The notes: generated by a model from the letters alone, not told the origin. DNA of 64,000 bases from Okamejei kenojei (GCA_035221665.1 CM069131.1:27342001-27406000), one strand, 5' to 3'. Positions 25,790-57,024 are shown, numbered from the stretch's first letter. A program made the numbers and translations.

Positions 25790-27425
25790 AATCATATTTG
25801 AAAGTAAACACTATGTCAATCAACCTCTTCAACAAGCTAAGAACTAACGAGCCACAAGGACAAATCCACTCTACATGCATTCGGAGGGGAGGTTCTGGTG
25901 CCTCTGGGCAAAACCAACTTGCTGAAAAAAACCACGAGGAATTTGACCTTCTATGTCTTGAACTTTAATTCAGTTATTCAGCTTGGCAACCGGGCCTGTC
26001 AGGAACTGGGGCTGATCTCCTTTGACAAAACGGTCCACAAGCTGCAAATTTCCCTGGACCCGCTGAGTGAATTCCCTGATCTTTTCGACAATAACCTGGG
26101 CAGGTTGCCCGTGACTTACAAGATTGTTATTGACCCCGAAGTGACACCCGTCATCCGACCTCCACAACGATTGTCATTTGCCATGACTGACAGGGTTCAC
26201 TCTGTGCTGAAGGACATGGCCTCCACAGGCATAATTGAAGCAGTCAGCGACCCCACCGACTGGGTCCCAACCATGATTGCCACAGTCAAGAACGGAAAAA
26301 ATGAAATCCGTTTGTGCATTAACTGGAAAGAACTGAATACTGCCATTAAGCGCCCACACCATCCCATGAAGACTGTCGAGGATGTTGGGGCAAAGGTCGG
26401 AACGGCCACTTTATTTTCTCTCCTTGATGCAAAGGACTCTTTCTGACAGATACCGCTGGACAAGGAGTCATCAAACCTCACCACATTTGCCACCCCATTC
26501 GGCAATACAAGTTTCTGACAATGCCATTCGGAATCATCTCTGCCAGTGAAGTCTTCCAAAGAACTATGGAGCTATTATTCGAGGACCTACCTTGTGCTAT
26601 CATTGTCGACGATATCCTAGTGTATGGCAAAGATGCAACGGAGCACGACCACAATCTCAGGCTCATCTTGGATCGTGCACGCAAGATCAACCTCAAGCTC
26701 AATCCTGACAAGTGCAAGTTCCGGGTTCCAGAGGTTTCCTACGTCGGCCACGTCCTAATGGTCTCAAACCCGATCCGAAGAAGGCTACTGCCATCACAGA
26801 AATGCCTGCCCCCACAGACATGAAAGGACTGCAGCGTTTTCTGGGCATGGTAAACTATCTCGGCAAGTTCATACCGAATCTCAGCGAACTAAGCTCCACA
26901 CTGTGGGAGCGGACAAAAAAGGACACAGCATGGTCATGGCTCCAGTAATATCAGATTGCTTTCAATGTCTTAAAGTCCAAACTGACCAGTACACCGACCC
27001 TAATTTTTTTGACCTGAAACGTCCGGTAATGATCACCTGCGATGCTTCGAAATTTGGGCTCGGCGCAGCCTGCTTGCAACCATCTTCCGAGGGCACCCTA
27101 CTACCTGTCTCGTATGCCTCTCGCACCATGACCGACACGGAGCAGCACTACGCGCAAATCGAAAATGAACTGTTGGCTGTTGTTTTTGCTTGCTCCAAAT
27201 TCCATGACTTCACCTTTGGCAACACCTTCACGGTCGAGACGGACCACCAACCACTGGTGACAATCCTGAACAAGCCCATCCACGCCGCGCCAGCTCGTTT
27301 GCAGCATATGATGATGCAGCTGCAGTGGTACGATTTCTCTATGACCTACACTAAGGGTAAGGGCATGCACGTTGCTGACACTCTCTCCCGCGCACCTCGG
27401 GCATCTTGCGAACAACATCAATTTG
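25790..27425 (+). mobile_element. Ty3/Gypsy pol fragment (protease end, RT, RNase H), disrupted; no gag, integrase or flanking LTRs seen
   Basis: LDAKDSF*QIPL, MPFGIISASEVFQ, IIVDDILVYG, LQRFLGMVNYL, CDASKFGLGA, YAQIENELLAVVF, ETDHQPL and ADTLSRA motifs in ORFs 25898, 26521, 26712 and 26903; GC-richer than the flanks. Confidence 0.93.
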
Positions 27426-27839
27426 CAGGATGCCAAGAGTGGGAATAAAGGAGTCGATGGATATTGTAAATATTTCTTGGTTATTTTTTAATAACCAAGG
27501 GAGAGATTCTTGAATAGTATGGGTGTCGGGGTTTATGGGGGGAAAGGCAGGAGTATAGGGTTAAGAGGAAATGATAGATCAGCCATGATTGAATGGCGGA
27601 GCAGAATGGCCTAATTCTGCCCCTATCACTTATGAACACGAACTCGAGCAGCATTCCACCTTTTTAGCTGCGATATGAAGTACGAATTCAAGTGTTTTGT
27701 AACTCTGTTCTGAAGATTTTTCATTTAAAAAATACTTGCAATTTTAAAGTTTTTACTCACCTGAGGTAGATCTTGTAATTACCGGACTAATTGGCTAGTA
27801 TGCAATAGCCGATCTACAGATCTGTAAATAGTAAAATTT

Positions 27840-38020: not shown

Positions 38021-38155
38021 TTCTTCTTTCGTGTGGTGTGCACAGCCTAAAGTTGTTGCACAACTTGTTCTATATGATCTTCCGTTTGTGCACGTCGAGT
38101 TTATTGCATTGGTCGAAACAGGGCGGACCACGTGAAGGTTGCAATCTTCCACCCC
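38021..38155 (-). mobile_element. Second copy (135 bp) of the HDV-ribozyme-headed retroposon
   Basis: Imperfect 13-bp TSD gaccatgcacttc (38008-38020) versus aaccgtgcacttc (38156-38168); GAAAGAAGAA(G) tail on the minus strand. Confidence 0.88.
38102..38155 (-). ncRNA. Minimal HDV/CPEB3-like ribozyme (54 nt)
   Basis: Reads GGGGUGG AA GAUUGCA ACC UUCACGU GGU CCGCCCU G UUUCGA C CAA UGCAAUA. L3 UUCACGU equals the mammalian CPEB3 L3 as recalled; there is one terminal P2 mismatch. Confidence 0.8.
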
Positions 38156-48745: not shown

Positions 48746-50392
48746 GAGTAGAGAGATATGGGACTTAAGCAGGGGATGAAGCCAGAAATAGAACTGCGAT
48801 TATCTTATTGAACGTCAGGGCAGGCTTGAGGGGACATCTAACCAACTTCACTTTATATTCTGAAGTGAAAATATCTAGCAGAATAGTTCAGGGGAACTAG
48901 TCCTGCCAATTTATGATCACATCCTATAATTGATGAAATAAAAGATAACGCAACATACCGTTATGTGTTGCAGTCAGTAACTAATTTAAACAAATGGCCT
49001 CAGCCTTTTGGATAGACTGTGTCTTTCAGCTCCATGGATGCATCAGAGTTAAATTTTGCAAAATTCGTGGATTTCTTTTTCATAACTTTCTACCAGATCA
49101 AATTTCTTATTAAATTTCATGGAATTCCTTGTGCAAGTTGATGATTTAAATTGAAATCCGTCTTTTGAGTTTCCTAAAGCTGCTGGGTTGTTGGAGTTGG
49201 ATGTGAATTTACATGAAGATGGAGCTTTTTTTAATCCACCGGGTTTATGATTAAGGAACTTAAAGCTGCGGATGTACACATTGCAGTACAAGTGGGCTCA
49301 GAGCTTCAAGTGGTCAAATGTGCTGCTCAGATTAAGGAATTGGCTGTGTGAAAAAGGTTAGGAATTGCTCAGACAATGCTGAGAATCAGTGTAGGAAGTT
49401 TGGGGTCATGTTGCTCCTGTTCCATTGTAGTAATTGTAGTGCTTTTTGCATGTGATCGAAGCTGTTGAATCTGGGGCTGGGTGCCTGTGCGAATGTTTAT
49501 TGGGGACAGTAAGACTATACAAAGTGAACATGCCAGCAGGAGGTATCTCAGGCCTGAATCTCTCTGGTTCAGTGACGCTGAGCTGCAGTACAGGTTGGAG
49601 ATTTAAATCGAGTGGTAGATGGTTTATTTTGAAACCGTACTTTTGTATCAGTCTCATTTAGGTGCTAAGATTTTGTTGAATGAATTGTGCAGAGTGATTT
49701 ATGTAAGCTGAATTATCTTGTGCTATAAAATGTGAAGCTAATGAATTTGCACCTAATATTTTGAAATGTGTATAACCAGCTAGAATATGATTAGTGTGAA
49801 GTTCACCTTTGAATTTATTTTCATTAAACTGTAGAAAGGCACAGAGAGTCTAGACTATGCAAGCTGATCCTAAAAATGTAAAGCTGTTGAAAGATTCACA
49901 AAGTGACTCTGGGATTCATCGTTGAAAACTCTAGTTTGAGTGAATTGACGGCAAGCTCGCTGCCAGGTTCATTTACGTTGTTTTGCTCAGGCATTCCTGA
50001 TTTTTGATAAACATCCGGACTCTCATGGGTGAATTCCATAGCTGCTTGATTGATTTACCTGACCTTTGGCTGTGTTACAAATATGCCAATATCTTTGGTG
50101 TAAATGTATCTGTTTTTCATTGTGTGTATGCATGCGTTTTGACATTTAAAAACTATATATTCATGCACAAGTTTGAAATGTATAAAGAAACAGACTACTC
50201 TTCAAATAATTTGAGGTGAGTTTTGCAGTGCTTGGTTTATTCAGCTTTTCAGATCAGAATCTTTGTGCCGAGTACTATTTATATGTTAAGGCAAGGCCAG
50301 CACCATCCAAAAGCAGCTTAGACACTTATGATGGGTAAGACTACAAATGTTCCTTCTATTCTTCACTTTGTTTAGTTTTTTAGTTTAGAGAT

Positions 50393-50525
50393 CTTCTTTC
50401 GTGTGGCGTGCACAGCCTAAAGTTGTTGGACAACTTGTTCTATTTGATCTTCCATTTGTGCACGTCGAGTTGATTGCATTAGTCGAAACAGGGCGGACCA
50501 CATGAAGGTTGCAATCTTCCACCCC
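50393..50525 (-). mobile_element. 133-bp non-autonomous retroposon with a 5' HDV-like ribozyme and an AAG-rich 3' tail
   Basis: Perfect 11-bp TSD AGTTTAGAGAT (50382-50392 and 50526-50536). Near-identical to 38021-38155. Inserted in a (tttag)n SINE/CR1-type tail. Confidence 0.88.
50472..50525 (-). ncRNA. Minimal HDV/CPEB3-like ribozyme (54 nt)
   Basis: Minus strand reads GGGGUGG(P1) AA GAUUGCA(P2) ACC(P3) UUCAUGU(L3) GGU(P3') CCGCCCU(P1') G UUUCGA C UAA UGCAAUC(P2'). All helices pair, with a G1-U wobble and a J4/2 CUAA. Confidence 0.82.
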
Positions 50526-51383
50526 AGTTTAGAGATACAGTGCAGAAACAGGCCATTCAGCCCACCACGTCCGCGCCAATCCCCCCCCCCCCCCTCCCCC
50601 CCCCCATCTGAGGAAACGGAAGGGAAATCTGCTCTAACATTACCACACTGGAGACATTAAATAAAGAGAACGAGCAGGTGAGTTTGTGGGGTAAAACTAC
50701 TCACGTATATCACACAACCTATTTCAAGTATCATTTTGGCTGAATGGCATGGAAAAATATGGAAAAATCTGAAATAAAAGCAAAATCTGGAAACTTTCAG
50801 CAGATCAAACAGCATTTGTGGAGTGAGAACAGAGTTAACATTTTGGGCCAAGGACCTGTTTAATTTTTGGTATTCCTGGTTACTCGCATCTCAATTCAAC
50901 GCTCCTATGTTTGTGTGAACATATTTTCGCAGCAGCAGCTTCTCAGAAAACACCGTGGCAATATTGGACATCCTGCAGATCATTTCCCTACTTGATTTAT
51001 TTTTTGTCTTTCCCCTATCCCCATATCCACTACAATTGCTGCAGAACTAAAAGTGATTTAATCTGAGAAAATATGCTTCTGTTTTTAAATTGTTTTTGCA
51101 CAAAAACACCTAACGTGATCCAATATGAAACAGATGAGAAAAGCAATGTAATTCTAGAAGAAAATCTGCTTCTGCACTTTTAATAGCACTATCCTGTAAA
51201 AGCAGTCCAGAACCAAATAAACACACGGCTCCTTTCTCTTAACAATAGTCATTAGATTCATCCATTATCACCCCCAGCCCCTTCTAAAAAGAGAAAAAAA
51301 AGTAATCCAATTCCCAGAGAAACAAGAACAGGAAATGCAGAGAAACAAGGTGTGATGTGTCTGAAGAATGGCCAAACCCTCCC

Positions 51384-55358: not shown

Positions 55359-57024
55359 CAGTGCCCTCCATAATGTTTGGGACAAAGACCCATTGTTTGT
55401 TTAATTGCCTCTGTACTCCACAATTTGAGATTTGCAATGGAAAAAATAATGTGGTTAAAGTGCACATTGTCAGATTTTATTAAAGGCCATTTTTATACAT
55501 TTTCGTTTCACCATGTAGAAAGTACAGCTGTGTTTATACATAATCCCCCCATTTCAGGGCACCATAATGTTTGGGCCACATGGCTTCACAGGTGTTTGTA
55601 ATTGTTCAGGTGTGTTTAATTGCCTTCTTAATGCAGGTATAAATGAGCTCTCAGCACCTAATCTTTCCTCCAGTCTTTCCATCACCTTTGGAAACTTTTA
55701 TTGCTGTTTATCAACATGAGGACCAAAGTTGTGCCAATGAAAGTCAAATAAGCCATTCTTTGGCAAAGAAGCCAAAGAAGTCTGAGAAACAAAAATAAAA
55801 CTGTTAGAGACATCAGCCAAACCTTAGGCTTACTAAAATCAACTGTTTGGAACATCATTAAGGCAAAAGAGAGCACTGGTGAGCTTACAAATTGCAAAGG
55901 GACTGGCAGGCCAAGGAAGATCTCCACAACTGATGACAGAAAAATTCTCTCTATAATAAAGAAAAATCCCCAAACATTTGTCCGACAGATCAGAAACGCT
56001 CTTCAGGAGTCGGGTGTGGATTTGTCAATGACCACTGTCCGTAGAAGACTTCATGAACAGAAATACAGAGGTTACACTGCAAGATGCAAACCACTGGTTA
56101 GCCACAAAATAGGATAGCCAGGTTACAGTTTGCCAAGAAGTACTTAAAAGAGCAACCACAGTTCGGGAAAAAGGTCTTGTGGACAGATGAGATGAAGATT
56201 AACTTAATCAGAGTGATGGCAAGAGCAAAATATAGAGGAGAGAAGAAACTGTCCAAGATCCAAAGCATACCACCTCATCTGTGAAACATGGTGGTGCGGG
56301 TATTACGGCCTGGGCATGTATGGCTGCTGAAGGTACTGGCTCACTTATCTTCATTGATGATACAACTGCTGATGGTAGTAGCATAATGAATTCTGAAGTA
56401 TATAGACACATCGTATCTGCTCAAGTTCAAACAAATGCTCAAAACTCATTGGCTGGCGGTTCATTGTACAGCAAGCCAATGATCTCAAACATACTGCTAA
56501 AGCAACAAAGGAGTTTTTCAAAGCTAGAAAATTGTCAATTCTTCAGTGGCCAAGTCAATCACTCAATTTGAACCCAATTGAGCATGCCTTTTATATGCTG
56601 AAGAGAAAACTGAAGGGAACTAGCCCCCAAAACAAGCATGAGCGAAAGATGGCTGCAATACAGGCTTGGCAGAGCATCACCAGAGAAGACGTCCAGCAAC
56701 TGCTGATGTCCATGAATCGCAAACTTCAAGCATGCAAAGGATATGCAAAAAAATACAAAACATGACTACTTTAATTTACATGACATTGCTGTGTCCCAAA
56801 CATTATGGTTCCCTGAAATGGGGGGACTATGTATAAACACTGCTGTAATTTCTACATGGTGAAACTAAAATGTATCAAAATGGCCTTTATTAAAATCTGA
56901 CAATGTGCACTTTAACCATATGTGATTTTTTTTGTTTTTGTTTTCTATTACAAATCTCAAATTGTGGAGTATAGAGGCAAATAAATAAATGATGGGTCTG
57001 TCCCAAACATTATGGAGGGCACTG
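55359..57024 (+). mobile_element. Full-length inactive Tc1/mariner (DD34E) transposon with ~220-bp IR/DR-type TIRs
   Basis: TA|CAGTGCCCTCCATAATGTTTGGGAC at the left end and its inverse at the right end (TSD TA mutated to CA). Inner repeats CCATAATGTTTGGG near 55562 and in inverse near 56795. Inserted within a CR1 tail. Confidence 0.95.
55716..56765 (+). pseudogene. Tc1 transposase pseudogene
   Basis: GRPRK, VLWTDE, VKHGGAG, QQ(D>A)NDLKH then 34 aa to NPIE, and WPSQSLNLNPIE motifs. Several stops and frameshifts; the second catalytic Asp is mutated. Confidence 0.93.

Follow-up and report, generated by a model that had tools for sequence, protein, structure and literature searches.

Short retroposons that begin with a ribozyme and derive from a LINE by internal deletion have been described in trypanosomes, where NARTc, RIME and SIDER belong to the L1Tc/ingi clade (PMC4035085, PMC6765202), and in Drosophila, where the R2 SIDEs join a 5' ribozyme and a short unrelated middle to the LINE 3' end and are not Pol III elements (PMC3414825). 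In vertebrates, LINEs of the Vingi clade, which are compact and encode APE and RT in a single ORF of ~1,000 aa without RNase H or ORF1 (PMC13708176, PMC3708506), yield bipartite non-autonomous elements such as the hedgehog Vingi-1_EE derivatives, SINE2-1_ACar and SINE2-1_AMi (PMC5786205). Related ribozymes include the minimal HDV-like/theta ribozymes of phages and metagenomes, which lie next to tRNAs, have a near-absent P4 and place the catalytic C first in J4/2 (bioRxiv 2023.06.13.544163), and the CPEB3 ribozyme, whose P1.1 is one pair plus a U/U (bioRxiv 2022.09.22.508989). Among the matches listed in a search of open-access papers and preprints there was neither a family like the one below nor end-to-end pairing in LINEs, and for Vingi together with HDV-like ribozymes one review was listed, whose ribozyme passages, in the part consulted, concern R2.

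Here we examined a 64-kb stretch of Okamejei kenojei DNA (the window; the genome assembly has 2.76 Gb), in which a 133-bp insert, judged by its relationships to other copies and LINEs, is almost certainly, as to its origin alone, a SIDE of a Vingi/Ingi-type LINE. The SIDE class is already known; what is seen here is a dispersed vertebrate family. Like NARTc, RIME and SIDER, the element is a short derivative, formed by deletion from an Ingi-group LINE, that starts at nt 1 with an HDV-like ribozyme and has short target duplications (~12 bp in theirs), but it differs in its vertebrate host, its far larger copy number, its (AAG)n tail, its parent without RNase H, and a ribozyme of only 54 nt with a CPEB3-type L3. 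It has the three-part make-up of the R2 SIDEs and is likewise not a Pol III element, whereas those are rDNA-specific and rare and the skate element is dispersed, numbers tens of thousands by estimate and has an APE-type parent. With the hedgehog, SINE2-1_ACar and SINE2-1_AMi elements it has in common that it is a bipartite non-autonomous Vingi derivative in a vertebrate. It agrees with the theta ribozymes in the near-absent P4 and the position of the catalytic C, but belongs to an animal retroelement and has a P4 stub of 6 nt. Compared with the CPEB3 ribozyme (RF00622), the numbering, the family-majority L3 UUCACGU, the single G37 followed by U38 and the CGAA of an older subfamily are alike, whereas the sequences of P1, P2 and P3 differ, P4 is a stub and Rfam gives no match.

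Exact duplications of 11 bp flank the minus-strand insert, and the 12th bp no longer matches (Table 1). The first-pass annotation had reported this 133-bp insert with perfect 11-bp duplications, G1 as the first base adjoining one of them and an AAG-rich 3' tail, all of which was reproduced, the element terminating with the start of an (AAG)n tail. It landed in the simple-repeat tail of an older repeat. An independent copy at another locus (L021) likewise entered this host repeat's simple-repeat tail, in opposite orientation and with the identical 11-bp duplication sequence; most other targets are unrelated. In sequencing run X18 a joint from 50392 to 50537 is compatible with an empty site, but is not counted as proof of one because both sides are repeat sequence. 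The second family copy in the window has C24 in L3, a P2 shortened by C54A, CCAA in J4/2 and an imperfect duplication. Elsewhere in the window, broken LTR-retrotransposon-like pol pieces with protease, RT and RNase H-like motifs (25841-27487, plus strand) and broken Tc1/mariner-like transposase pieces (55752-56765, plus strand) were recognized by eye, and inspection of the ORFs of at least 110 aa revealed no obvious host exon.

Table 1. Features of the inserted element and its surroundings, in window coordinates
Feature	Position	Strand	Basis or remark
Target site duplication, copy on element's 3' side	50382..50392	.	exact 11-mer
Target site duplication, copy adjoining G1	50526..50536	.	exact 11-mer
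Non-autonomous element, 133 bp, young subfamily	50393..50525	-	sequence and family comparison
Predicted HDV-like ribozyme, nt 1-54	50472..50525	-	descriptor; same in LINE copy L300
Ribozyme P1	50519-50525/50490-50496	-	descriptor parse
Ribozyme J1/2	50517-50518	-	descriptor parse
Ribozyme P2	50510-50516/50472-50478	-	descriptor parse
Ribozyme P3	50507-50509/50497-50499	-	descriptor parse
Ribozyme L3, C24U at 50502	50500-50506	-	descriptor parse
Ribozyme G37	50489	-	descriptor parse
Ribozyme P4 stub	50483-50488	-	descriptor parse
Ribozyme J4/2, putative catalytic C44 at 50482	50479-50482	-	descriptor parse
Remainder of LINE 5' UTR piece, nt 55-~79	50447..50471	-	LINE comparison
5' arm of end-to-end helix, nt 62-69	50457-50464	-	within LINE 5' UTR piece
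Linker, nt 80-97	50429..50446	-	no collinear match in two full-length LINE copies
LINE 3' end: last codons, stop, 3' UTR, (AAG)n tail start	50393..50428	-	LINE comparison
Stop codon inherited from LINE	50417-50419	-	within LINE 3' end
3' arm of end-to-end helix	50407-50414	-	within LINE 3' UTR
3' end of older, different repeat	50537..50578	-	similar stretches elsewhere in window
Second family copy	38023..38155	-	94.7% identical to 50393-50525 copy

The first-pass annotation had read the first 54 nt as an HDV nested double pseudoknot, and every helix could be parsed as claimed: P1 GGGGUGG/CCGCCCU, a 2-nt J1/2, P2 GAUUGCA/UGCAAUC, P3 ACC/GGU, a single G37, a 6-nt P4 stub and J4/2 CUAA. P1.1 consists of one C22-G37 pair plus U21/U38, an arrangement as in CPEB3. 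The descriptor used (P1 of 7 bp starting from G, short J1/2, P2 of 6-7 bp, P3 of 3 bp, L3 of 7 nt, C-N-R-A) matched the two family copies and nothing else on both strands of the window, and had 0 matches in 200 dinucleotide-shuffled windows. As for L3, which had been given as UUCAYGU, the pattern stands but the actual loop is UUCAUGU; every one of the 30 copies selected through the 3' end has C24, and a stricter descriptor demanding C24 does not match the copy at 50393-50525. The catalytic C, the G1.U36 wobble, U20 and G25 are all present in it, and in 28, 22, 29 and 27 of the 30 copies, respectively. The model search called for by the first-pass annotation gave no ribozyme match in Rfam around the locus at E<=10, and RF00622 (cut-off 35 bits) did not match this copy. 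In a nested minimum-free-energy fold, which excludes pseudoknots, 60 nt of upstream flank pair with the ribozyme, so that this particular copy, with C24U and a mispairing flank, may be a weaker ribozyme than others of its family. Two other classes were considered and rejected. A theta ribozyme would have an adjacent phage tRNA gene, while the window has no tRNA and the setting is an animal retroelement. A Pol III SINE is likewise set aside: simple regular expressions found no A/B boxes, as had been stated before, the window is free of tRNAs according to ARAGORN, Rfam gave no 5S/7SL-type match, and the head of the element is a LINE 5' end.

The element belongs to a large family. Its 5' 23-mer has 5,060 exact matches in the genome and its 3' 22-mer 7,532, LINE ends included, with 0 for either control. 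Since the exact 5' 23-mer is also present in 8 of the first 30 copies selected by the 3' motif, the family would comprise ~19,000 copies, which we read as 15-25 thousand. All 30 of these loci are the short element and, when the uniformity of the 5' ends is checked on this set chosen solely by the 3' motif, 28 extend to the G1 position. Duplications of 9-18 bp flank 25/30 of the best-matching copies, and 19/24 and 17/24 in two other sets of copies with both ends (6 of 30 were dropped from each, an end being missing or altered), compared with 3/300 random sites. Copies are dispersed and mostly full length, with variable duplications and an (AAG)n tail. They fall into two subfamilies, sampled with 15 copies each, which diverge from their own majority by 2.5% (young) and 5.5% (older); J4/2 is frequently CGAA in the older one, and the termini are CATACGC-AAG in the older and CACACGA-AAG in the young subfamily. 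The most frequent variants among 30 copies are at nt 8 (J1/2) and nt 45 (the variable J4/2 base), while nt 32, the partner of U5, gives U-A or U.G. Of 30 copies, 11 have every one of the 18 pairs and the core bases intact, and U29C, which disrupts A17-U29, occurs in 6/30, in one of them compensated. Related sequence is present in sequencing runs of five organisms and one more, and reads of four runs were aligned to it; no RNA run was among those listed for the stretch itself. One short element lies in sense orientation within its own parent LINE family (L299:277-409), and another lies antisense within a different Vingi-like family (L210).

The parent of the family was sought among LINEs. A search with PF14529 returned mostly a Nimb-like LINE, which has RNase H, ORF1, an AAG tail and unrelated ends, and one compact element, and a query with the latter led to several Vingi-like families, designated A-E; these were rejected as the parent because their P1, P2 and 3' UTR are unlike those of the short element. 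Two exclusion patterns, one for another P4 and one for another sequence beyond nt 62, matched 24 and 148 times, and of 54 matches examined nearly all are indel copies. The one informative match (L246), an element of ~420 bp flanked by a duplication, carries the short element's ribozyme and ~110 C-terminal codons; its stop codon and 3' UTR are the same as in the short element's last ~36 nt. A first look with the coding part of L246 gave 713 candidates in the genome, of which 38 stretches of this family, termed F, were examined. Walking upstream, copies L292, L300 and L304 were found to start with the same ribozyme; L307 is complete, with 3,040 nt, both ends and a duplication, and L292 with L308 makes up a second copy with both ends. 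The autonomous LINE sharing both ends, which the first-pass annotation proposed to look for, is family F (L307, L292+L308, L300 and L246). The short element consists of LINE nt 1-~79, a linker of ~18 nt and the last ~36 nt of the LINE; the linker, which contains a short duplication as well as nt 100-106 repeated in inverted form (7 nt), is missing from the two full LINE copies compared. Since both ends are shared with the LINE and the ORF is deleted, the element is a SIDE and not a Pol III SINE. The earlier term "ribozyme-SINE" is apt in so far as it denotes a LINE-mobilised, non-Pol III retroposon, but misplaces the element as to class, a SIDE being an internal-deletion derivative.

Family F is ~3.04 kb long with a single ORF, and its APE begins ~130 nt after G1. 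Pfam finds APE and RVT_1 but no RNase_H in seven pieces of families B, C, D and F; RNase_H appears solely in the Nimb-like control. Homologs, encoded on contigs of 3.1-3.6 kb, are single proteins of ~1,000 aa that share these domains. APE and RT without RNase H and such single-ORF homologs fit the description of Vingi, while none of the best 120 of 744 homologs is named Vingi and the PDB contains no close relative. Compared by eye with sequences printed in a supplement, the RT motifs agree with Ingi-1_Pp but not with RTE. In an RT tree of 176 columns, with no named Vingi reference, F is placed with the I-like set, apart from CR1/L2-like elements, and Nimb is not separated from F. That the parent is of Vingi type is well supported by its anatomy, not by phylogeny.

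These comparisons bear on which LINE mobilises the element. RTE/RTEX had been suggested in the first-pass annotation in view of the tail, and the abundant, young Nimb/I-like LINE also ends in (AAG)n, one copy (L111, G000 C2) having an ORF1 open frame of 401 aa and an intact ORF2 of 1,276 aa with RNase H; moreover, RTE is described as making bipartite elements (PMC5786205). However, both ends match the Vingi/Ingi-type family F, the RT motifs resemble Ingi-1_Pp and not RTE, and neither end resembles the Nimb-like loci beyond the tail, so that such a partner is very improbable and, as to origin, largely refuted. A weightier alternative, compatible with our preferred explanation, is that the element originated from family F and is now carried by another AAG-tailed LINE, likeliest the younger family C. 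Every family F copy examined is broken, and the copies lie 3.5% from their majority, against 2.5% in the young short subfamily. Family C copies (L202, L204 and L209) are 1.3% apart pairwise (n=3) with a clean ribozyme, making this family the best candidate for an active element, and its terminus CATACGC-AAG is that of the older subfamily; hybrid R2/R1 SIDEs show that partner switching is possible (PMC3414825). Against this, the young subfamily's terminus has moved away from that sequence, and intact F copies may exist because only 38 of 713 candidates were examined. We regard such a switch as a real possibility, somewhat under even.

Returning to a Vingi-type SIDE headed by family F's ribozyme, we compared the fold across LINE families. 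In families A, B, C, D and F and metagenome relatives, the sequences of P1 and P2 are rewritten (P2 being, for example, GUCGGCA/UGCCGAU, GUUGUCG/CGACAAC, AAAGACA/UGUCUUU or GACAGAU/AUCUGUC) while pairing is kept and C-N-R-A follows P4. The covariation that had been proposed as a check is thereby found between LINE families; within the short family no compensatory change of this kind is seen, as its copies resemble each other too closely and decay neutrally. The first descriptor matched 4/7 loci of family A, 4/8 of B, 2/4 of C, 1/3 of F, 0/3 of D and 0/3 Nimb-like loci, and 0/17 metagenome loci. A looser descriptor, written after the metagenome loci had been read by eye and with 1 other match in 789 kb, matched 1/3 of D, 4/15 metagenome loci with the N-terminus and 0/4 Nimb-like loci. 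Sub-threshold Rfam matches lie at the ribozyme position in family C (32.1 of 44 bits), L349 (25.2 of 35) and L300 (17.5 of 44). Two metagenome loci were noted by eye to have HDV-like 5' ends, one with a much extended L3 loop (L330) and one resembling family C (L387). In another ribozyme, activity is little with a 1-nt J1/2 and rises with 3-7 nt (PMC4908430); the 2-nt J1/2, near the lower limit of that other ribozyme, is common to most of the sister families.

The ribozyme of the family majority is probably active. The rival view accepts the same origin and holds that the 5' end is set by an internal Pol II promoter starting at +1, in which case the element would not be promoterless as the first-pass annotation had inferred. 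An example is Pr77 of L1Tc, which is both promoter and ribozyme (PMC3383444), the fold in the short element being slow, vestigial, or mainly protein-binding or protective. In a poly(A) RNA run (X24) of unknown strandedness, probably from another species, with 923 reads, 152 loose ends continue past G1 and read starts or ends form no pile there, as this view would have it; but antisense and unselected copies likewise yield read-through reads. In the same run, the element (window 50393-50516) has a first-mate depth 1.7 to 2.9 times as high on the minus strand as on the plus, which the host repeat does not; how this is to be read depends on the library's strandedness. The U29C sublineage and the small share of intact copies (11/30) also speak for a vestigial fold, but copies decay neutrally after insertion, and both subfamily majorities, like LINE families with rewritten helices, retain the catalytic C, G25, U20 and G1.U36. 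We hold the promoter explanation to be unlikely, and a Vingi-type SIDE carrying a predicted near-minimal HDV-like ribozyme, its activity included, to be quite probable.

The two ends of these LINEs may also pair with each other. In the short element, nt 62-69 are complementary to nt 112-119, a complement inherited from the LINE, and nt 90-96 to nt 100-106. When the 40 nt after the ribozyme are compared with the last 35 nt, using majority ends of 2-19 copies per end, families A, B, C, D, F and one metagenome family have perfect 5'-3' complements of 8, 6, 7, 7, 8 and 8 nt, against at most 6 nt for non-cognate family pairs, and the cognate pairing ranks first among 720 permutations at each of three window sizes. 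Pairing energies per family are weakly better than those of shuffles (3 to 109 of 500 as good), and single copies compared with shuffles are inconsistent (0 to 242 of 300). Pairing of the LINE 5' UTR beside the ribozyme with the 3' end in six families is only suggestive because the idea was formed after the sequences had been seen. In addition, the 5' end is inverted in 7/38 family F stretches, running off at nt ~1-11, and sense in 3; the inverted first ~70 nt are found at L269, L273, L282, L290, L301, L303 and L305, and in six of these seven the break falls at nt ~66-77, directly beyond the helix. The inverted 5' ends would fit twin priming on RNA that ends near G1. If real, the pairing would explain both the easy birth of internal deletions and the inversion breaks at nt ~66-77.

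Taken together, a copy would be transcribed by Pol II, mostly by read-through from flanking DNA, and the ribozyme would then cut 5' of G1, giving the RNA a fixed 5' end. Pairing of nt 62-69 with nt 112-119 would hold the ends together and leave the terminal CAYACG-(AAG)n free, and a Vingi protein acting in trans would nick the target and reverse-transcribe from the tail. A short RNA with a fixed 5' end would also account for most copies ending at G1.

The likeness to the CPEB3 ribozyme in L3 and single-pair P1.1, to which the first-pass annotation had pointed, is deeper than claimed there: Vingi-like 5' ends pass RF00622. On the Okamejei kenojei genome 30 of 59 scored matches exceed the cut-off of 35, the best with 66.8 bits, and none does so on the control genomes. 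Among 12 matches examined, three (L390:21-94 on the plus strand, L393 and L395, on G000 C14, C27 and C14; all 3'-truncated) enter a Vingi-like APE start ~120 nt later, L390 having 54% identity to P0110 over 65 aa (E 5e-18). For Vingi-2_Gav (Repbase, gharial), nt 2-74 are given in the supplement of PMC5786205; by eye, this stretch agrees with the RF00622 consensus at 52/54 compared positions (38/40 in nt 2-41 and 14/14 at the 3' end), the sole other difference being the P4 interior. In the same supplement the body of the alligator SINE2-1_AMi is almost letter for letter the CPEB3 ribozyme consensus, and the paper makes no reference to CPEB3. From Vingi-2_Gav and the three skate loci it follows that, in a crocodilian as well as in a skate genome, Vingi-type LINEs start with ribozymes of the CPEB3 class. 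We infer from such sequence likeness that the mammalian CPEB3 ribozyme may descend from a Vingi-type element. The broader proposition, that ribozymes with the CPEB3 core and a panhandle are standard Vingi 5' ends which readily spawn mini-elements, CPEB3 being a domesticated one, seems to us rather likelier than its opposite. Among the matches listed in the open literature, nothing links CPEB3 with Vingi or proposes a Vingi origin of CPEB3.

Further CPEB3-like ribozymes occur in dispersed families. A second short ribozyme-headed family of ~165 bp with an AAG tail and a stub P4 (L398-L400, L403 and L404; G000 C1 and C31) scores 39.6-39.8 bits on RF00622; its terminus resembles that of Vingi family D, L398 has a 10-bp duplication, and T replaces G at the expected first P1 position in all three. 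Two more families (L391, L392 and L396; L397 and L401) have CPEB3-like ribozymes with a longer P4.

A Vingi origin would provide a testable source for the CPEB3 ribozyme. HDV has been proposed to have acquired its ribozymes from CPEB3, and by way of that published proposal the link would extend to the origins of HDV. Vingi-1_Acar UTRs flank the templates in gene-writing systems (PMC13708176), and the predicted ribozyme and end-to-end pairing in Vingi UTRs matter for this reason; the 133-nt element would be a natural minimal Vingi template. In the skate genome itself, the family has seeded an estimated 15-25 thousand predicted near-minimal ribozymes, which form a natural mutant library and may be a source of cleavage within introns.
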